DNA of 64,000 bases from Heterodontus francisci. Lineage: Eukaryota. The stretch lies in NCBI RefSeq assembly GCF_036365525.1, contig NC_090383.1, positions 119,848,531 through 119,912,530 on the forward strand, given 5' to 3'. A program made the position numbers and the translations under genes. Positions 15,400 to 58,162 of this stretch are shown in pieces. Each line of letters starts with the position of its first letter. The first letter of the stretch is position 1. The notes under the pieces were generated by a model that was not told the origin of the DNA, made no database searches, and was given only the letters and a program-made list of their open reading frames with translations.

Positions 15400-17647
15400 G
15401 GGTTTCTGGATCTTTAAAATAATCTGATCCTGCCAACGCTTTTAGAGCAGATACCTGTTTTGCATCAACTGTACATTAACTGAGGAAACGTCTCTGCGGT
15501 TTGGGTTTTCGATTTCCTGTTTCTCAATAATCACGAAGCTGCTTTAAACCCTTTAATGGTCAGTCATAGGACAGGATTTTAATATCAAGGGCTCTTTGTG
15601 GTTGGCAAGGAAATGGAAGGATAATGTAAATATAGGCAGATTAGCTTCAATCTCCGCCCCCTGCCGGTTTAAAAAAAGTCGTGTGTCCCTTCATATAGTG
15701 ATAATCCTATTACTTTGTCAGAGGAAACTAGTTCAGTTGTTTCATGGTTTTGCTCGAACTGCCGTTTTTTGATGGCCATTATTTGGAAAGAATTGTCAAA
15801 TGCTACACCACAAAGGTGGTAATGGCCATATAGACTGAAGTTATCTTAAATCCAAGATTTAGTCTCAACAAGGGTCATGAACACAACTAAGCACAATTAG
15901 TATGGGCTGGGTTAGTATTCCAGTGCTGGACAGGCCTAGGTCTGTCATTTGGATGCTTTCATGGTGCCATTGCATTCAGTTGAGTAATGTTACTGAATTG
16001 GGTCAGTCATATCCTGATTAACTAAAGGCAAGATTTTTATTGCTAATTATGACTAACCTCATGAAAACCACAATGAATGAACAGATTTTCCAACATTTCA
16101 ATTTAGTTGCAGACTAGTTAGTTTCCAATTCAATTCCACAGTAAATAGTTTGCTTTGTTTTCCAGTCAGTCCAACATACAGATACACATCGAAGTTTGTC
16201 ATAGTATGATATAGTATGTCGACTGGGTTTGGAGATTGGCCTTGTGTGGCCTAGCTAATGCACTGAATGAATAGAACATAACTAGACTGAAGAGCTATTA
16301 GGTCATGATCACCTGGATAGTTATCTTCCGGAACCCTTGTATGTGCACGTGCCTGAGTGGAGTGACTTGCCTTCTTACTTTCTACTACTATCACTGTCCT
16401 GGTGAATGTCACTGATAGTGATGTCTATGCAGATCACACCAGTCTCTGCACCATAGTAATCTGTACAATAAACAACAGCCAAATGAAAGTACAGGCTATA
16501 GACTGAGTGAACAATGGTGTGTTGTCCACCCTGAGGAGATCACGACAGTAACTGTTGAAAGGTCGGACATGATGCTCTGTGCTTATTCAACTCTACAAGT
16601 GCCAAGCTTTCTTGAGTTAGGCATCTTAGCTCCAAACTATAATAGACCAAACAATGACTGGAAAAGCTGCACAACTAGGAATACTGAACAAAGCTGAGGC
16701 TACTCAACACTAAGCAATTCTGAGAGGTCTCAATCTGGTGGAATATTGTAGTCTGTTTGCAGAGTCGCCTTCACCTGGAGGTGATCAAGATTAGAACCAA
16801 GCGGATTACTGAAGGTAATGAGGATGGCTCACCCTGTGCTGGAGGACCATCTGTAACATACTGAGCAGCCTCCTCTATATAGTCACTGGGTGACATCTTC
16901 CAGTGTTCTCTGCCACCGTGGCCAGATTTATTCATTGTCTTCAACAGTAACCTGTTGTGCCTTGAAATAAATTTTAAATCAGCACCAGTTGTTGATTTGT
17001 ATTAAAATCAATTTAATGTGTTAAATAATTTAAAATAGTTTGATTTTATGTATTTTGAATAAAACAATAAAATGGTCGCAATCGATCTTGGTGTTGTGGA
17101 GGTGCGTTGGGTCTACAGCCTCATTGGAGAACATTGAAGGTGAATTTAGCAATTTAGCAGCATTGTCATCATCCTTTGCTCGGTATTTGCCAGTTCTCAA
17201 GTCCTTAACCTGCCTCTGAGTACACAGCTATCACCTGGCCTGAGCTTACCTATCAGTGGTCTGCATTCAGCAAACTAAGAAGCGCCTCTATCATTATGGG
17301 GGGAAAAAGTGCTTTCAAAAACTTTTTCCTCCTGTATTAGGAAACTCCCTGCACATCCCCTCATCAAACACTCCCACACAATGGGCTTGATACAGGTTAA
17401 AGCTCCCTCTTCTGTCCCAATAATGTGAGTTGAAATGTTTTTCTGTTCAGTTGTATGCTAGCTATCCAACCATTTATCTCCGATGTTGGAGTCTGGCCAA
17501 ACTGGTGACAAGTTATTATTCTGTCTGTGAGTTTGGGGGTATGACTGAGATGTCGACACAATATCTGCAGGAAGAGAGCTTGTTTCTGTGGTTCACATCT
17601 AGGGACTAGAGGCATAGTTTGGTACCTGTGCTGACATAGAGGATACA

Positions 17648-23222: not shown

Positions 23223-24593
23223 TGAACCTGCCCCCACCACACTCTCAGACAGTGCATTCCAGATCCTAAACACTCACTGAACCTGCCCCCACCACACTCT
23301 CAGACAGTGCATTCCAGATCCTAAACACTCACTGAACCTGCCTCCACCACACTCTCAGACAGTGTATTCCAGATCCTAAACACTCACTGAACCTGCCTCC
23401 ACCACACTCTCAGACAGTGCATTCCAGATCCTAAACACTCACTGAACCTGCCTCCACCACACTCTCAGACAGTGCATTCCAGATCCTAAACACACACTGA
23501 ACCTGCCTCCACCACACTCTCAGACAGTGTATTCCAGATCCTAAACACTCACTGAACCTGCCTCCACCACACTCTCAGACAGTGCATTCCAGATCCTAAA
23601 CACTCTCTGAACCTGCCTCCACCACACTCTCAGACAGTGTATTCCAGATCCTAAACACTCACTGAACCTGCCTCCACCACACTCTCAGACAGTGCATTCC
23701 AGATCCTAAACACTCACTGAACCTGCCTCCACCACACTCTCAGACAGTGTATTCCAGATCCTAAACACTCTCTGAACCTGCCTCCACCACACTCTCAGAC
23801 AGTGCATTCCAGATCCTAAACACTCACTGAACCTGCCTTCACCACACTCTCAGACAGTGTATTCCAGATCCTAAACACTCTCTGAACCTGCCTTCACCAC
23901 ACTCTCAGACAGTGTATTCCAGACCCTAAACACTCATTGAACCTGCCTCCACCACACTCTCAGACAGTGCATTCCAGATCCTAAACACTCACTGAACCTG
24001 CCTTCACCACACTCTCAGACAGCGTATTCCAGATCCTAAACACTCTCTGAACCTGCCTTCACCACACTCTCAGACAGTGTATTCCAGACCCTAAACACTC
24101 ATTGAACCTGCCTCCACCACACTCTCAGACAGTGCATTCCAGATCCTAAACACTCACTGAACCTGCCTTCACCACACTCTCAGACAGTGTATTCCAGACC
24201 CTAAACACTCATTGAACCTGCCTCCACCACACTCTCAGACAGTGCATTCCAGATCCTACACTCACTGAACCTGCTTCCACGACACTCTCAGACAGTGCAT
24301 TCCAGATCCTAAACACTCTCTGAACCTGCCTCCACCACACTCTCAGACAGTACATTCCAGATCCTACACTCACTGAACCTGCTTCCACGACACTCCCAGA
24401 CAGTGCATTCCAGATCCTAAACACACACTGAACCTGCCTCCACCACACTCTCAGAAAGTGCATTCCAGATCCTAAACACTCACTGAACCTGCCTCCACCA
24501 CACTCTCAGACAGTGCATTCCAGATCCTAAACACTCACTGAACCTGCCTCCACCACACTCTCAGACAGTGCATTCCAGATCCTAAACACTCAC
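23223..24593. repeat. 55-bp minisatellite array A (~25 copies)
   Basis: Unit tgaacctgcctccaccacactctcagacagtgcattccagatcctaaacactcac. Confidence 0.97.
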
Positions 24594-25116
24594 TATGTGA
24601 TAAAACTTTTCCTCATGTCGCTATTGCTTCTTTTGCCTCAAATCTGTGTGCTCTTGTTCTCAATCCTTCCACCAATGGGAACAGTTTCTCTCTATCCGCT
24701 CTATCCAGACCCCTCGTGATTATGAATACCTCTATCAAATCTCCTCTCAACCTGCTCATCTCCAAGGAAAACAGTCCCAACTTCTCCAATCTATCTTCAT
24801 AACTGAAGTTCCTCATCCCTGGAACCATTCTCATGAAACTTTTCTGCACCTCTCTCTAATGCCTTCACATCTTTCCTAAAATGTGGCATCCAGAGTTGGA
24901 CACAACACTCCAGTTGAGGCCAAACCAGTGTTCTACATAAGTTTAACATAAATACCTTGCTTTTGTATTAATAAAGTCCAGGATACTGTATGTTCTATTA
25001 ACTGCTCTCTCAATCTGTCCTGCCGCATTCAATGATTTATGCACATTTACATTCAGGTTCCTCTGCTCCTGCACCCCCTTTCAAATTGTACCCTTTATTC
25101 TATATTGTCTCTCCAA

Positions 25117-37324: not shown

Positions 37325-37814
37325 TCATTGAACGTGGTAGGGAAGGTTGAGAAAGTTAATAAAACATACAGGATCCTGGGCTTTAGAAATAGAGGCATAG
37401 AGTACAAAAGCAGTTAAGTTGTGATAAACTTTTATAAAACACTGTTGGACACACCATTGTGTCCAATTCTGGGTATGACATTTTGGGAAGGATGTGAAGG
37501 CTTTAGAGAGGGTGAAGAAAAGATTTACCAGAATGTTTCCAGTGATGAGGGACATCAGTTACTAATTGGAGAAGCTGGGGCTGTTTTCCTTGGACAAGGT
37601 TGAGAGGAGATCTGATGGAGGTAAAGAAAGATAGATTTGCATTTACTAGGATCTCAGTGCGCTTTACAGTAAATGAAGGTGTTTGAAATCATGAGTCTGG
37701 ACAGAGTAGATCGGGAGAAACTGTTGCCACTGGCACAGAGAAGGACAAGACACTGATTTAAGGTGATTGGCAAAAGAAGCAAAGGCGACATGAGGAAACT
37801 TTTTTTTTTACACA

Positions 37815-39846
37815 GCGAGTGCTTAGGATCCGGAATGCGCTGTCTGAGAGTGTGGTGGAGGCAGGTTCAGTGAGTGTTTATGATCCGGAATGCGCTGTCT
37901 GAGAGTGCGGTGGAGGCAGGTTCAGTGAGTGTTTAGGATCTGGAATGCACTGTCTGAGAGTGTGGTGGAGGCAGGTTCAGTGAGTGTTTAGGATCTGGAA
38001 CGCACTGTCTGAGAGTGTGGTGGAGGCAGGTTCAGTGAATGTTTAGGATCTGGAATGCACTGTCTGAGAGTGTGGTGGAGGCAGGTTCAGTGAGTGTTTA
38101 GGATCTGGAATGCACTGTCTGAGAGTGTGGTGGAGGCAGGTTCAGTGAGTGTTTAGGATCTGGAATGCACTGTCTGAGAGTGTGGTGGAGGCAGGTTCAG
38201 TGAGTGTTTAGGATCTGGAATGCACTGTCTGAGAGTGTGGTGGAGGCAGGTTCAGTGAGTGTTTAGGATCTGGAATGCACTGTCTGAGAGTGTGGTGGAG
38301 GCAGGTTCAGTGAGTGTTTAGGATCTGGAATGCACTGTCTGAGAGTGTGGTGGAGGCAGGTTCAGAGAGTGTTTAGGATCTGGAACGCACTGTCTGAGAG
38401 TGTGGTGGAGGCAGGTTCAGTGAGTGTTTAGGATCTGGAATACACTGTCTGAGAGTGTGGTGGAGGCAGGTTCAGTGAGTGTTTAGGATCTGGAATGCAC
38501 TGTCTGAGAGTGTGGTGGAGGCAGGTTCAGTGAGTGTTTAGGATCTGGAATGCACTGTCTGAGAGTGTGGTGGAGGCGGGTTCAGTGAGTGTTTAGGATC
38601 TGGAATGCACTGTCTGAGAGTGTGGTGGAGGCAGGTTCAGTGAGTGTTTAGGATCTGGAATGCACTGTCTGAGAGTGTGGTGGAGGCGGGTTCAGTGAGT
38701 GTTTAGGATCTGGAATGCACTGTCTGAGAGTGTGGTGGAGGCAGGTTCAGTGAGTGTTTAGGATCTGGAATGCACTGTCTGAGAGTGTGGTGGAGGCAGG
38801 TTCAGTGAGTGTTTAGGATCTGGAATGCACTGTCTGAGAGTGTGGTGGAAGCAGGTTCAGTGAGTGTTTAGGATCTGGAATGCACTGTCTGAGAATGTGG
38901 TGGAGGCAGGTTCAGTGAGTGTTCAGGATCTGGAATGCACTGTCTGAGAGTGTGGTGGAGGCAGGTTCAGTGAGTGTTTAGGATCTGGAATGCACTGTCT
39001 GAGAGTGTGGTGGAGGCAGGTTCAGTGTGTGTTTAGGATCTGGAATTCACTGTCTGAGAGTGTGGTGGAGGCAGGTTCAGTGAGTGTTCAGGATCTGGAA
39101 TGCACTGTTTGAGAGTGTGGTGGAGGCAGGTTCAGTGTGTGTTTAGGAGCTGGAATGCACTGTCTGAGAGTGTGGTGGAGGCAGGTTCAGTGAGTGTTCA
39201 GGATCTGGAATGCACTGTCTGAGAGTGCGGTGGAGGCAGGTTCAGTGAGTGTTCAGGATCTGGAATGCACTGTCTGAGAGTGTGGTGGAGGCAGGTTCAG
39301 TGTGTGTTTAGGATCTGGAATACACTGTCTGAGAGTGCGGTGGAGGCAGGTTCAGTGAGTGTTCAGGATCTGGAATGCACTGTCTGAGAGTGTGGTGGAG
39401 GCAGGTTCAGTGTGTGTTTAGGATCTGGAATGCACTGTTTGAGAGTGTGGTGGAGGCAGGTTCAGTGAGTGTTTAGGAGCTGGAATGCACTGTCTGAGAG
39501 TGTGGTGGAGGCAGGTTCAGTGTGTGTTTAGGATCTGGAATGCACTGTTTGAGAGTGTGGTGGAGGCAGGTTCAGTGAGTGTTTAGGAGCTGGAATGCAC
39601 TGTCTGAGAGTGTGGTGGAGGCAGGTTCAGTGAGTGTTCAGGATCTGGAATGCACTGTCTGAGAGTGTGGTGGAGGCAGGTTCAGTGTGTGTTTAGGATC
39701 TGGAATTCACTGTCTGAGAGTGTGGTGAAGGCAGGTTCAGTGTGTGTTTAGGATCTGGAATACACTGTCTGAGAGTGTGGTGGAGGCAGGTTCAGTGTGT
39801 GTTTAGGATCTGGAATTCACTGTCTGAGAGTGTGGTGGAGGCAGAT
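37815..39846. repeat. 55-bp minisatellite array B (~37 copies), reverse complement of array A
   Basis: Unit gtgagtgtttaggatctggaatgcactgtctgagagtgtggtggaggcaggttca. Confidence 0.97.
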
Positions 39847-40206
39847 TCAAGAGGGAATTGGATAATTATCTGAAGCGATAAAGTCTGCAAGGCCAAGGGG
39901 GAAGGACGGGGGAGTGAGACGTCGCAATTTGCTCTTGGTGGGCCGAATTGCCTCCTTCTGTGCGGTAACCAGTCTCTGAGTCTGAGATTCATTGCAAAGC
40001 GCAGCATAGGGTGTGTTAACTGAACATTGTTTCATGCACAGATTGAGGGAGGGACAAAGCCGCAGTCCTGTTTCTACTTTTTAAACAGCGCGCTGAATTT
40101 GCAACAAAACAAAACCACAGGGTCGGCTGCTCTGCTGTGGGACGAGAGGAAACGAACGGCTGTTTCGTTCTAAATAAACCGAGGTTTAAAGGGGCAGTTT
40201 GAAGCC

Positions 40207-50384: not shown

Positions 50385-51197
50385 GTCAGTCACCGGGCAC
50401 ATTCCCTTCCTAACTTAAATAAGGCACATTGCCCAAATTGCCGAGGCTGATTTAACCCTTGCAGGAATATCAGATCTCCACAACTGCTGCTTGTAAATGG
50501 GTCAGTGACAATGAAGGCTCTTGCATGTTAGCTGTTGAGACCACTCCCAATTATCAGCACCTTTTAGGAGGGGGTCTCAATAGCAGGGTCCCAGTTAAAG
50601 ACGGACCTGGACAATTAGGTGACCTTTTAAAGAGGGAGTCTCACTATCAGAAGAGGAAATCTGGTTGTCAGGATCCCATTTATTCTCCTTCACTTTCCTC
50701 TCTTACCCTTTCTTCCCAAGCAATAGGGAAAGGATCCGAAATAAGCACTGATTGCCTCAAACGTCCCCATTCTTCAGCTTTGAGTATGGATAGAGAAATG
50801 CTGACTGTTTGTTCACCCATGGGTGACAGTCAATAAGAAGCTCACTATTGTCCCTATTCAATATCTACACAAGGCCACATCTCAGTAGAACTTCTGGATA
50901 ACAAGTTGAAGCAAATCCCTGTTTTGCAGCCACATGAAAAGATTAATTTAATATTTCTGCAAGTTTTATGAAGGGATTTCTTTCAAGAGTCAGCAGGTGG
51001 TTTATTCAGTGAGACCCCACCCTTTACCTCCCAACCAGTTTAACTTCTCGCAATCCAGTTGATACGAGGACCAAATCCACAGAACAACATTGCTCACAAT
51101 CCTAAACAGATTGTCACTCAGAAAATCTCACTCAGAGAGGCCAGTGTGATGGAAAATGTAAAACTCACATGGCTGAAGTAGAGTGTACTCTTTGAAC

Positions 51198-51373
51198 AGC
51201 GTAGAGGGAGCTTTACTCTGTATCTAACCCCCATGCTGTCCCTGTCCTGGGAGTGTTTGATAGGGACAGTGTAGAGGGAGCTTTACTCTGTATCTAACCC
51301 CCATGCTGTCCCTGTCCTGGGAGTGTTTGATGGGGACAGTGTAGAGGGAGCTTTACTCTGTATCTAACCCTGT
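51198..51373. repeat. ~70-bp tandem repeat, left half (target of the Tx1 element)
   Basis: gtagagggagctttactctgtatctaacccccatgctgtccctgtcctgggagtgtttgatggggacagt x2.5. Confidence 0.92.
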
Positions 51374-54300
51374 TTTTTTCTTCTTTTTTAAAAAATCTTT
51401 TTTTTATAAGGTGGCCTTCATACCCCAGACCACTTTGATATATTTTATGTCGAGGGGGCCTTTATTCCTCAGGGCCCCTTGAGATACATTTTTGAAAAGT
51501 AACTTTATTAAAATCAAATGAACAAAAAACTCAAATTAAATTGCCATTCTTGGTGTCGACAATGTACTCCAGTCCCTGCGGTGCCCACCGGTCACGGAAG
51601 GCCTCAAGCCTACCGGCTGACACCGCATGTTCCTTCTCCAAGGACACGCGGGCATGAACGTAGCCGCGGAAGAGGGGCAGGCAATCGGGAAGGACGGACC
51701 CCCCGACAGCCCGCAGCCTGGACCTGTGAATTGCCACCTTGGCCAGACGCAGGAACAGACCAACGAGGAGATCCTCCTCCCGGCCCAAGCCCCTCCTCAC
51801 TGGGTGCCCAAAGATCAGGAGCGTGGGACTGAAGTGCAGCCAGAACCTGAGGAGCAGCCCCTTCAAATAGTTAAAGAGGGACTGCAACCTCGCACACTCC
51901 ATATATACATGGAACATGGACTCGTCCAGGCCGCAGAAAGTACAGGTGGCCTGGGAGTCCGTGAACCTACTTAAAAGTCGATTGCACGGGACTGCTCTGT
52001 GCAGCACCCTCCACCCCAGGTCCCCGATATAAAGGGGGAAGACTCCCACGTAGAGAGACCTCCATCGAGGTTTTCCCTCGCTGTCAGATGGCAACGCGAA
52101 CTGCCAGGGCGTGTCCGGCCGGCTGACGAGGGCGAGGAAGTGAAGAGTGTGCAGGAGCTGCCCGTACAGGAAACCCCTCCGCGCCGATTGGAATGGCACG
52201 GATGGCATTTCCGAGAGGCGGCTCGGGTTGTGCGGGACCGGCTCCCGAGGAGGGGTTCGGGGCCTAGGTCTGATGAGCAGTTCTGGACGAGCGAGGGTCA
52301 GCTCGGCCATGAGCGCTCTGCTCTCCCGAGCCCCCTCGCCACCCGCAGTGAGGGGCGTCCTGGGTGCTTCGACTACTCCTCCGCCCGCCGGTCCGTCCCC
52401 GGAGTCGGCCACCCGGACATCCGAAGCGCTCTCCTCCGCCAGCGGGGGAGCGCCCTGACTGGAGGCGACCATGTTCCAGACTCGGAATCGATCCCGGTAA
52501 AAGACAGGCAACTCCCTCAGAGAGGTGCGGCTAACGGTCTCCACTGGGAGCTGCGTGTCATCTTGAAAGCAGTGACACAGGCGGAAAAAATACGCCGCCA
52601 GCGCATACCATCTGGGAGGACGCTCGACGTACAGGTATCTCTGCAGGGTCTGAAGGCGGAGAGTCGCAGCCTGGGTGCGGACGCACACCAGCAACTGGCC
52701 ACCCTCCTCGATCAGGAGACTCAGGACCGCGGCAGAGACCCAGTGTTTCCTCTTGCCCCAGAAGAAATCGATGACTTTCTTCTGGACCTTGGTGGCAATG
52801 CAGGGGGCGGGGCCAAAGTGACCAACCGGTACCACAGCATCGAGGCCCCATTTCTCCCAATTGATCCTCGCGGAGGATGCGGCAGAAAAGGTCTGCTGGC
52901 AGTCGCGCATCCTCCGCAAGTCAACAGGATCTGTGAACGCGAGGAGCATGTCGTCGGCGTAAGCCGAGAGGACGACCCGCATGGCCGGCTCGCGCAGAGC
53001 CAATCCCGTCAACCTCCTGCGAAGCAGGCACAGGAAGGGCTCCACGCAGATGGTATACAATTGGCCGGACATGGGGCTTCCCTGACGCACTCCTCTCCCA
53101 AAGCGAAGGGGCGCCGTCAGGGACCCGTTAACCTTGACTAGACACTCTGCGGCGGCGTATAAAAGTCGGACCCGGGCCACGAAATGCGGCCCGAGTCCGA
53201 AAGCGCGCAGAGTCCCGAAAAGGTATTCATAGAAACATAGAAAATAGGAGCAGGAGTAGGCCATTCGGTCCTTTGAGCCTGCTCAGTCTGTCATTGTGAT
53301 CATGGCTGATCATCCAACTCAGTAACCTGTTCCCACTTTCGCCCCATACCCTTTGATCCCTTTAGACCCAAGAGCTATATCTAACTCCTTCTTGAAAACA
53401 TACAATGTTTTGGCCTCAACTGCTTTCTGTGGTAGCGAATTCCACAGGTTCACCACTGTCTGGGTGAAGAAATTTCTCCTCTTCTCAGTCCTGAAAGGTT
53501 TACCCTGTATCCTTAGACTATGACCCTTGGTTCTGCCCCCCCCCCCCCCACCATTGGGAACATCCTTCCTGCCAAGTCTTGTTAGAATTGTATAGGTTGC
53601 TATGAGATCCCCCATCACTCTTCTGAACTCCAGCGAATATAATCCGAACCGACTCAATCTCTCCTCATACGTCAGTCCCGCCATCCCAGGAATCAGTTTG
53701 GTAAACCTTCGCTGCGCTCCCTCTAACGCAAGAATATCCTTCCTCAGATAAGGAGACCAAAACTGCACACAATATTCCAGGTGTGGCCTCACCAAGGCCT
53801 TTGATTCCCTTGCCTAACAAGAACCTATCAACCTCCACCTTAAAAATATTCAATGACCCTGCCTCCACCACCTTCTGAGGTAGAAGAAGGGTGAAGTGTG
53901 GTCCAAATCTTCCAGGATCTGGATCCGCGACCTCACGTATGCGCCTCAGGACCCTATGAGCTGTAGGTCCCTCAGCGCACCCTTCTTCTCTTTGTACGCC
54001 TGCCACAGGGCCGGGTCCACGACGGCATGACTGAGGCGGGACTCCAAGTCGAGCACCTCCCTCTTTAGGCGCCCAATCTCGGCTTCCCGCCTCTTGGTCG
54101 ACCCCGTCGTGTACTCCTGACAGACGACGCGGATGTGAGTCTTGCCCAGATCCCACCATAGCCTCAAGGAGGGGAAGCCCCCCTGCTTCCTTCTCCAGTC
54201 GGCCCAGAATCGATGGAACGAATCCCGGAATCACTTGACCTCCAGTGAACTCCACCCACACCAGGTGGTGGTCCAAGCACAGAACCAGCTGCGTGGAGGC

Positions 54301-57300
54301 TGCTGAGATGCGGGAGACATGCACCTGAGAAATGTAGAGGAGGTCAATTCAGGACCCTCCTCCTCCAGATCTCAATCTGAAGGCACTGGAGTCGGGATGG
54401 AGATTCCGCCAGACGTCCACCAAGTTGAGGGAGCTGATCAGTTCCCTCAACTTCTCCACCAATGCTTGGCCGCGCTGGGGACTGGAGCGATCGCTCACCT
54501 TGAGGGTGCAGTTAAAATTCTTCCCGAGAATGATGCATTCGCCGCTATAGATAGAGCTCAAGAGAGCGGACACTTCTTTAATGAAGCGCGCTTGCAACGC
54601 GCCGGGTCTGGGCGCGTACACGTTCACAAAGTGGAGCGGCACGCTACCCAGGCGTACGGCAAGGTGGAGCAAACAGCCTGGCCCGAGCTCCTTGACCCCC
54701 AAGATCTCTGGATGAAAAGTTGGGGCTAACAAGATAGCCATCCCACTAGAAATAGGGGTGCGAAGACTCATGTAGACCCCAAACTGCCACTCCAGGAGCT
54801 AGGTGACTTCGTCTCCCTGAATTGTGTGGGTTTCCTGCAGAAAGCTCACCGCGTATCTCCCTTCCCTGAGGACTGAGAGATTGTGAAATCTACGGAGAGA
54901 CCATCTGCTGCCGTTGATGTTGAGGCTGGCTATGGTTATCTTCATATCAAAGGTACTTAAAAACCATCACCAACACCTCACTGTGAGGAGGGATCAAAAG
55001 CGCATCTTGCCCTCCACTCCCCCAGCAACCTATTGAGGAACGCGTTAAACCGGTGCCTCTCAATCAGTTTCACGCCCACACCCTTCCCCACCTTCTTGAG
55101 GGTGGCACAGACAGACAGGATGATTCGCGCTCGTCTCGACCAGCGGCTGAGGGCCAGCTGAACTTCACTGCGGCAACCCCTGCATGCCACGAGGAAGTTC
55201 TGGAGTTCCGCGGTGGGGATGAGAGGAGACTCAGTGGGAGGCACGAGGGAGTCCACTGCCTCACTGGCGATGAATTCAAGGTCGTCCTCCGTGCCCCACA
55301 CCGAGTCCCCATCTTCCTGCAGGTCATCACTGCCAGTGGCCGCCACATTCACTACATACGTTGGGGCAAATGCCCCGGCTGCACCAGCTGGTCCCGCCTC
55401 CATCATGATCTCACCCCCAGGATTGATGGCGGAGGAGTCCTCTCTGGGTTCTTCTGTGAAACTGGAGCCTATGGGTGCCAAAAGTTCAGGGCCCCCCTCC
55501 ATCACCGTCCCCAGGCCCACGAGCGACCCAGGGGAGATAGTAGTTCCCAGACTCCGGAAATCCAGCCGGAGCCGGGACCGGAGGCAGAGAGAGGAGGTCA
55601 TTTCCCACACGCCAGCGCCCACTGGCCCAGCAGATGGGGCAACATTTTCAACCATAACTGGGTCGGGTACATCATGGTCCGGAGTGGATTTTGACTGGGA
55701 AGGCTGAACCTTTGGGGCCTCGCCCTCCCCTTCACTCAAGGCACCCGACCCAGTGGCAGAATGGGAGGCTTCTTCAGGAACGTCCCCAGGCTCCCCCACC
55801 ACATGCAGGGCTCCACTTGCTCGTTCAGGAGGGGCCACATGTACAGGGGTCTTCCCCTCCCCTCCATCCTAAGGGGTAGGGTGCTCCTGCCCAGACTTTA
55901 CAGCCTTGATGGTGGTGGTGGCAGGGGGAATCTGGGGATTCGAACCAGGAGACAGCTCCCCTCCAGTAGATGGGCCCTGCACCTCATGGCCCTGTGTTCC
56001 CTCTGTGGACGGGTGCCTTCTCCTCTTTTTCCCACTGGGCCGCGGAGGCACAGAGACTGCCATGTCATCAGGGGCCTCCACCACTGCACTCTCCTTTTGC
56101 CTGGTTACCTTCGGCCTGCGCCCAGCCCTGGGGCAAGCGGGTTCCCTGGGATCGGGCCTTAGGCTGAGCCCATGCTTGGGTTGTGCCACGGTGTCCAGGG
56201 GACAAGCCTCTCGGTGTTTATTCTTTCTCCGCGTCTTCCCTCCACTCGGACGGGCTCTCGCCTCCGTGCTGGAGGCCGTGAAAACCACAGCCTCCAGAAC
56301 CGCCTGAGCGGTGTCTGTTGGAGGTGTAGGGGGGGTGGGAGGGGGCGCAGCGGGGCCACCCTGGGCTGCCAAAGTGGAGTTGGCGGCTGGGAGGTTGGGA
56401 CAGTTCTTTCGAACATGCCCCACCCCCTTGCAAGCATGGCACCACGCCCCGTCCAAGGTCCAGAAGACACGGTAGGTCGTCTCCTGGAACTGAACAGCAA
56501 AATGGCTCTCTGACACCACATCCCGCGCCAGCTGTATGAATAGCTGGCGGCGGAAGGAGTAGACATGTCGGAGGCTGTTCTCCCGAAGGCCGAGTGGGAC
56601 TGGGGTGATTCCCAACCTCACCTCCCCCAGATGGTGCAGGTGGGGGAGGAGGAGCTCATTGGGAATAAAGGGCGGGATGTTCGATAGAATCACATGCTGT
56701 GCAGTGGCCTCCAGAGGGTCCACTGGCAGGAAAGTCCCGCCCACGGTGAGCCCCCTGCTCAGGGCCAGGGCCACTGCCCACTCAGTCTTCAGGATAAACA
56801 CTGCCTTCCCGTACATCTTTGAGGCTGCAACAATAGCCAAGGGGCCGACAATCTCAGCCATTGCCTTAACGCATGCCTCAGTAGTCATGGTTGGGTGGGT
56901 GTAACTCTTCACCCCAAGCTTTGAAGTGAAGATTTTAAATGGTGACGGAGATACAGGAGTGGCTGCAGCATAGGAAGGTCCCTCCACTGGAGAGGACTGT
57001 GAAGCCATGGGGTAGAAGAGTCACACCCACCGTTAAATAAAATAGAGTTTGAGAGAAAGGAGAAATAAAATAATCATGACAAGTAGTCCCACAAATAGTT
57101 TGCTGGGGGGGTTATCACGGGGGAGAGAGGCTGAAGGACAGGAAGGCCAGGAGGAATCATTCTCTTTGCAGATCTTATTTTCAAGGCAGTCCTTTCACTG
57201 GTCTTCCAGTTGTGGTGGCGGGGAGGGAGTGTGATGTCTCCACCTGGGATGGCTGTAAGCTCTCCGGGCACACTCTGCTTCTGGTATTGAGGGAAAACAG

Positions 57301-57710
57301 AAAAGAGAAAGTTTCTTCACCTGGGCAGCCCCAGCTATCCCGGGCTAGGTCGTTGGGGTGGGGAGGGAGCTCCCTGTTCGATGCTGTTAAACACAGGAGC
57401 TCCCTCTCCAAACAGCCCCACCCAAGGTCTTCAGGTCTCTTCTTTCCCCCTCCCCACAACAATCAATGAAAGGGCTTCAAAAAAACAAACTCACAAGAGC
57501 TGTCAGTTCTTTTGGCCTCTTGTTTTCCTCTTTTGTAGACAGGGATAGATGGAAAAATCTTCCTTAAAGTCTCAGTCTTCCTTTTACAGCAGTCACACAG
57601 CCTCCAGCTCCCAGCCTCCAACTCACAGTCAACAATCAGCAGTCAGCTGAGACTCATTGTGCACACACAGTCAGTGGTCCCAATCAGGCAGCAGCCAACC
57701 CAGTTTTTTT
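51374..57710 (-). mobile_element. Near-full-length Tx1-clade non-LTR retrotransposon (ORF1 + ORF2, disrupted), antisense in TRIM intron 4
   Basis: ORF1 57008-54978 (frameshift ~55850) with zinc knuckle CHACKGVGHVRKNC. ORF2 starts at 54945 (MKITIASLNING..., APE) with RT GVRQGSPMSGQLY / YADD and C-terminal CTFC...H....C, ending at 51531. T-rich (poly-A) end at 51374; CpG-rich. Confidence 0.92.
53227..53880 (-). mobile_element. Two joined CR1 3' fragments inserted in Tx1 ORF2
   Basis: catagaaacatagaaa tail, ORF 53319-53795 [14 protein letters not shown]...; 53798-53880 matches 6410-6490. Confidence 0.88.
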
Positions 57711-57955
57711 TGTAGTGGGAGCTTTAAGTTGTATCTCACCCCATTTTTTTCCCCTCTTTTTTCTCTATCTTTTTTTTCTAACCCTGTGCTGTCTAACCCT
57801 AACCTGCCCTGGGAGTGTTTGATGGGACAGTGTAGAGGGAGCTTTACTCTGTATTTAACCCTGTGCTGTACCTGTCCTGGGAGTGTTTGATGGGGACAGT
57901 GTCGAGGGAGCTTTACTCTGTATCTAACCCCTTGCTGTGCCTGTCCTGGGAGTTC
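57711..57955. repeat. ~70-bp tandem repeat, right half
   Basis: Same unit as 51198-51373, resuming at tctaaccctgtgctg. Confidence 0.9.
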
Positions 57956-58162
57956 TGATACTAACACAAGCTGGGGTGGTATGTCATGTTTAAAAGAAAA
58001 GAACACTGACATCCTCAGTGAGTAAGAAACCTGACAGACACATCAAATTTCTGAAGGTTTTCACAGTCTCTGAGCAACTGATTATTACAGTTTGTTAAAA
58101 TTCCCCAGTAGAATCTGTCCTTTTTCCTGAGGTTGTCCATTGATCTTTCGATGTGTTCACAG

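Follow-up and report, generated by a model that had tools for sequence, protein, structure and literature searches.

A young Tx1L-related LINE in a shark genome probably prefers one site of a 69-bp minisatellite and likely spreads it

Within the window, the 64,000-nucleotide stretch of the Heterodontus francisci genome (contig NC_090383.1) analysed here, positions 51374–57703 hold, on the minus strand, a decayed copy of a Tx1-clade LINE of the APE/RT type. Its insertion point is the CAGC^ACGGGGTTAG step of a 69-bp repeat that is dispersed in the genome, and the contig ends about 1 Mb away (Table 1). Arrays of 69–70-bp units lie on either side of the LINE (51196–51373 and 57777–57953), with TCTAACCCTGT at both 51363–51373 and 57777–57787 and a T-tract from 51374; re-reading of the coordinates and arrays bore out the first-pass annotation, which had described an element splitting a tandem array of about 70 bp with its poly(A) end at an 11-bp repeat. 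Between the element 5′ end (57703) and the right-hand copy of TCTAACCCTGT are a T-tract (57704–57711), a 32-nt degenerate piece of the unit and a T-rich tract (57744–57776). The copy, 84–97% identical to an intact one, is no longer functional: a premature stop interrupts ORF1, and ORF2 carries stops, a deletion and a 651-bp insert from another LINE, which from its peptide we take to be CR1-like.

Table 1. Features of the element and its flanking arrays in the window
Feature	Position	Strand
Array, downstream part, ~2.5 units of 69–70 bp	51196..51362	-
3′ copy of the 11-bp duplication ACAGGGTTAGA; the nick is inferred at its first A	51363..51373	-
Poly(A) tail, interrupted	51374..51408	-
3′ UTR with AATAAA and TATAAA signals	51409..51530	-
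ORF2 remnant: APE endonuclease, RT, C-terminal zinc finger	51531..54945	-
Damage to ORF2 remnant: stops; ~238 bp deletion near 52848; ~685 bp replaced by insert	within 51531..54945	-
Inserted 3′ piece of another abundant LINE, with relatives elsewhere in the window	53229..53879	-
ORF1 remnant (CCHC knuckle), ended early by a stop at 55869–55871; an intact copy has 680 aa	54978..57008	-
5′ UTR; starts CTGGGTTGG, similar to the target's CGGGGTTAG	57009..57703	-
Poly(A), 32-nt unit fragment (57712–57743), poly(A); likely a retrotransposed read-through tail	57704..57776	-
5′ copy of the 11-bp duplication	57777..57787	-
Array, upstream part; ends ACAGC at the nick	57788..57953	-

Other features of the window touch on the element or the repeat. 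An inverted repeat in the 5′ UTR (57340–57400; GGAGCTCC...GGAGCTCC), spotted by eye and kept in other copies, could form an RNA hairpin. The unit next to the site has a 9-bp extra piece (57788–57806) that gives GGTTAGGGTTAG, two telomere-like repeats, and a solitary degenerate match to the 69-bp unit lies at 17342–17421 (72%, E 6e-6). Two arrays of a 55-bp unit are found in opposite orientations at 23223–24594 and 37813–39849; translated, this unit gives RIWNALSESVVEAGS, which resembles the peptide at the C-terminal end of the ORF in the LINE piece at 53229–53879, so this minisatellite may have come from a LINE.

A protein search of the species' own genome gave 150 candidate copies for scoring, about 90 of which have an open ORF2 frame of at least 1249 aa (hand count), many of them in tandem and near contig ends. 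All 20 copies that we fetched encode a 1245-aa ORF2 and are 98.3–99.9% identical to one another; the family is therefore young. Intact copy L170 contains PF03372 (APE) and PF00078 (RT), the 680-aa ORF1 of the intact copy has a zf-CCHC match below the Pfam cut-off, and poly(A) tails and target-site duplications are present in the family, as for the Tx1 clade. The best named full-length relative is Tx1L of Xenopus laevis (YTX2_XENLA, P0004), with 50% identity over the whole length of ORF2. In a quick RT tree of 38 rows, from which one row was removed for short coverage and in which no labelled Keno, Kibi or Koshi is included, the family groups with stingray, sturgeon, Tx1L and turtle proteins (SH-aLRT 100), and fish proteins fall apart from it. 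Judged by these sequence comparisons, the family belongs to the Tx1L subgroup of the Tx1 clade, in agreement with the clade first proposed for the window copy. The hairpin loop of the endonuclease, TWRSGGGGS, is Gly-rich and four residues shorter than that of Tx1L in 20 of 20 copies. Near-identical ORFs are joined to different 5′ UTRs in L154, L155, L170 and the window (57420–57703), which suggests promoter replacement among subfamilies. Element and unit also occur in public runs from two further organisms, with a small share in organism C, and in one RNA library; these sequences are contigs, which carry no expression, strand or transcript-end information.

The minisatellite is a new target for a Tx1 family. 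Its exact target motif, a 24-mer, occurs at least 23,440 times in the 6.0-Gb genome, and three forms of the intact site give 1,589, 1,737 and 335 matches, those listed being nearly all near contig ends. The majority of arrays close to chromosome ends have neither a tail nor a duplication. No Rfam match was found in 51100–58100 at E up to 1, and the target is thus no Rfam structured RNA. We considered a larger carrier such as Tx1D and rejected it: the flanks of 16 arrays have almost only the element's own 5′ UTR in common, and no insertion into Tx1D, as in the Tx1L family proper, was encountered. The sequence GGGTTAG resembles the telomere repeat; among the sampled copies, none is followed by telomere repeats.

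To count insertions on and off target, we located 3′ ends by an exact 25-nt motif (868 genome matches) and read both junctions by hand for the first 90 of 100 listed ends, on contigs C1–C6. Junction classes and duplications are hand calls, and A at +1 is biased by poly(A) ambiguity. What follows the first poly(A) is, in 62 of the 90 copies, the unit or the 5′ end of the element itself; 4 copies have a short G-run there and 24 other DNA. Such a tally of 3′ flanks, proposed beforehand as a check on specificity, does favour the repeat, yet it over-counts, as 17 of the 62 are transduced units; tallies of this kind overstate specificity and call for caution. With both junctions considered, 29 copies are on target, 43 are off target (9 of these calls without a clear duplication) and 18 are without class, 16 of the last lying near ends and 17 continuing into a unit. 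The on-target share of the sample is accordingly 32–51%, and one sequence type makes up at least 29 of 90 flanks when both junctions are required, which exceeds the 20% of flanks used as a criterion for target specificity (PMC4494074).

Chance does not explain insertion into the arrays, because 22 5′-truncated junction hits, drawn from all fetched loci, are preceded by the unit's left half and show a duplication whose start is always the A of CAGC^A; a further 121 hits in this junction set include internal breaks and off-target copies. These hits support the proposed target nucleotide and orientation in the minisatellite. The sequence-specific family that the first-pass annotation envisaged stands as a preference for one minisatellite site and fails as strict specificity, against which copies in unrelated sequence had been named as the decisive observation: 43 of the 72 resolved copies lie in unrelated DNA, and the nearly-all-in-target pattern of R1Bm or Tx1L is absent. 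Targeting is real yet leaky, a preferential insertion rather than a strict one.

The likeness of off-target sites to the target is confined to its upstream half, TRCAGC^A; they show none to its downstream half. Among the 34 such sites with a hand-called duplication, −1 is a pyrimidine in all 34 and C in 30, and C at −4 (21), A at −3 (18) and T at −6 (17) are also frequent. The duplication is 14 bp long in 15 of these 34 sites, 14 bp being also the mode of the family (range 5–15). The shared upstream motif and duplication mode point to the same enzyme at off-target sites. The perfect 7-mer was hit by 29 on-target copies as against 5 off target, a ratio for which abundance predicts at most about 0.04 (23,440 units multiplied by five, over 3.3–4.0 million non-unit 7-mers, their density taken from 0.5 Mb of local DNA). 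Two clear 5′-truncated copies (L167 and L035) occupy the site with poly(A) in place of the upstream motif; of six hits preceded by poly(A), two repeat the start point of their neighbour and two have an overlap of 3–5 bp alone. As the upstream motif alone cannot give 29:5, and as L167 and L035 were hits in its absence, we infer a second, downstream determinant of targeting. At full-length 5′ junctions the sequence reads ACTGG in 36 of 53, compared with ACGGG in the unit, and the element 5′ end has itself been hit again in L014, L194 and L226. Among 14 older copies with 5′ ends, several of which lack the 3′ end, no off-target insertion was found that is full-length and extended at its 5′ side. 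We rejected the idea that the upstream unit is a 5′ monomer of the element RNA, given that units beside full-length 5′ ends share variants of the local array in 16 of 46 cases, a rate close to that of control units (114 of 311).

Copies of the element also carry pieces of the repeat to new places. In 17 of the 43 copies off target, the element's poly(A) is followed by a piece of the unit and a second poly(A), and in 15 of the 17 a duplication of unrelated DNA encloses the whole block (for example, L106, L107, L108, L112 and L184); intact copies with several poly(A)–unit layers occur as well. On target, fragments stacked with poly(A) indicate that the terminal tail can serve for priming there as well. 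Unrelated stretches of 20–80 nt, flanked by poly(A), lie between the unit pieces of stacked 3′ tails in L158, L157 and L193, and are possibly host RNA copied in trans. Among the first 100 matches listed for each of the three forms of the intact site, six sites are more than 25 Mb from a contig end. Five of the six end in poly(A) with a 12–14-bp duplication, and two (L073 and L246) contain no element sequence; interior sites also include a composite without terminal tail (L168) and a 194-bp array with neither tail nor duplication (L250). Transduced unit pieces therefore likely plant new targets. At L161/L247, a 99.7% full-length copy occupies the exact site inside an older off-target insertion, itself 92.8% identical to an intact copy and bounded by a duplication with 1 mismatch in 15. 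This is probably a seeded interior site that was hit again later, which fits better than one long transcript.

The same tails bear on the extra degenerate unit in the window, previously read as a sign that one site had been hit twice. Repeated hits on one site do occur in the family; the extra unit, by comparison, is not a whole unit broken again but the opening 32 nt of one, placed between two poly(A) tracts, and because other copies show this form it is most likely a transduced read-through tail. Three orders of events fit the window: a single transcript with its start upstream, within a stacked donor; an orphan tail followed by the element; or the element followed by the tail. The first two fit better, since with them the 11-bp repeat stays a true duplication and the minority ACAGGG variant (335 of 3,661 exact sites, the three site variants together) is found on both sides, although this match of flanks is weak proof by itself, as the next upstream unit of the array is also ACAGGG.

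On balance, we consider it probable that a young Tx1L-related LINE inserts preferentially at CAGC^ACGGGGTTAG and that its copies, in carrying pieces of the minisatellite, create targets. In the mechanism that we propose, the bottom strand would be nicked by the endonuclease at T^G with a short preference (top strand TRCAGC^A), and the second nick would follow about 14 nt on. Weak 3′ poly(A) signals would allow transcription to read through into the repeat, producing poly(A)–unit–poly(A) tails both on and off target. The downstream GGGGTTAG would act as the second determinant and raise use of the target far above that of the short motif. On the analogy of R1Bm and SART1, it would most likely do so by letting read-through RNA pair with the freed end of the DNA. 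Finally, the resemblance of the element 5′ end to the target would make full-length joins seamless and regenerate a site that could be hit again.

By the same analogy, RNA pairing is favoured over reading of the downstream half by protein. Pairing is not needed in every event, given the on-target stacks of fragment and poly(A) primed at the terminal tail, and these stacks would suit a protein-only scheme in which the endonuclease and another part of ORF2 read both target halves, with seeding retained and no RNA pairing. The Tx1L endonuclease does nick almost solely its own site in vitro (PMC1950540), but the downstream half leaves no trace at off-target sites of the shark element, and the shortened, Gly-rich hairpin loop is the one thought to read nick-adjacent DNA; we think recognition by protein alone unlikely.

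Location offers a different reading: none of the 29 on-target copies is farther than 25 Mb from a contig end, and 36 of the 43 copies off target are in chromosome interiors (p 1e-13). A weak nick motif, combined with a preference for open subtelomeric chromatin or with survival there, could make the repeat simply the best local site. The repeat is itself concentrated near ends, however, which explains the geography; no more than 7 off-target copies are found near ends, where the 7-mer is common, and an interior seeded site was probably hit, so we regard the chromatin explanation as improbable. A strictly specific family, with off-target copies moved in trans by the enzyme of another LINE, would accord with the lengths of the copies (median 248 nt off target versus 679 nt on target, p 7e-5; near full length in 0 of 43 versus 10 of 29) and with the absence of unrelated DNA at any of 29 full-length 5′ ends. 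Movement in trans is nevertheless very improbable, because off-target sites share with the target its upstream motif and a duplication of 14 bp, and the consensus of human L1 differs (TTTT/AA; PMC1950540). That there is no targeting, and that the unit is the element's own head and tail, is scarcely credible: the element did bring 17 downstream units with it, but the 22 5′-truncated hits refute this, as their RNA cannot supply the left half of the unit upstream, and the local array variants shared beside full-length 5′ ends and the thousands of empty sites also oppose it.

A new Tx1 target alone would not surprise a specialist. The preferred reading, insertion guided by a short motif and a downstream determinant together with target seeding, splits target choice into two parts that are directly testable, in a vertebrate APE element that has about 90 open ORF2 copies and offers a natural library of on- and off-target sites. 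A site-preferring element that spreads its own target would be a route to the origin of target specificity and to the dispersal of minisatellites. More tentatively, element and repeat may form a self-reinforcing pair, in which the element is the main disperser of the repeat, uses its own read-through RNA as guide and builds its own safe-haven target. If so, it makes for itself the kind of safe haven that other site-specific elements must borrow from the host.

Our literature search, with subscription journals and Repbase outside it, returned no report of this shark family, the 69-bp repeat or a target-spreading element. Published work already describes Tx1 families that prefer a target, satellites as targets, insertion in tandem and 3′ transduction (PMC4494074, PMC7265360, PMC1950540, PMC4640811; Kojima and Fujiwara 2004, as cited), with satellites among the Tx1 targets in the legend of Fig. 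3 of one paper (PMC4494074). Tx1L shares with the shark family its RT clade, the combination of APE and RT, and a target preference. Tx1L, however, inserts into the DNA transposon Tx1D and has been called stringent (PMC1950540, PMC4494074), whereas the shark family uses a free minisatellite and misses it in about half of its copies. The hairpin loop, which in Tx1L has the sequence TYVRVRDGHVSQS in place of TWRSGGGGS, shapes target choice there and is reported not to be transferable as a module (PMC1950540). Crocodilian Tx1-Mar and other target-preferring Tx1 elements likewise show preference and tandem insertions that sandwich a duplication (PMC4494074). The Tx1-Mar type differs in having another target, and the available portion of that paper does not describe spreading of a target by the element (PMC4494074).

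Outside the Tx1 clade, R1Bm, R7Ag and SART1Bm of the R1 clade are also APE elements whose RNA can pair with the downstream target (PMC7265360); such RNA–target pairing is reported for SART1 and R1Bm, and 3′ transduction for R1Bm and R7Ag (PMC7265360). They differ in clade and in having essential rDNA or telomere targets, which transduction does not recreate as working genes. Read-through at a weak poly(A) signal, a second poly(A) and orphan transductions, known from 3′ transduction by L1 (in part PMC7265360), liken the shark element to L1. The cargo of L1, however, is arbitrary flanking DNA, whereas that of the shark element is the preferred target itself, and the family is a leaky, self-seeding variant of Tx1 with a new target.
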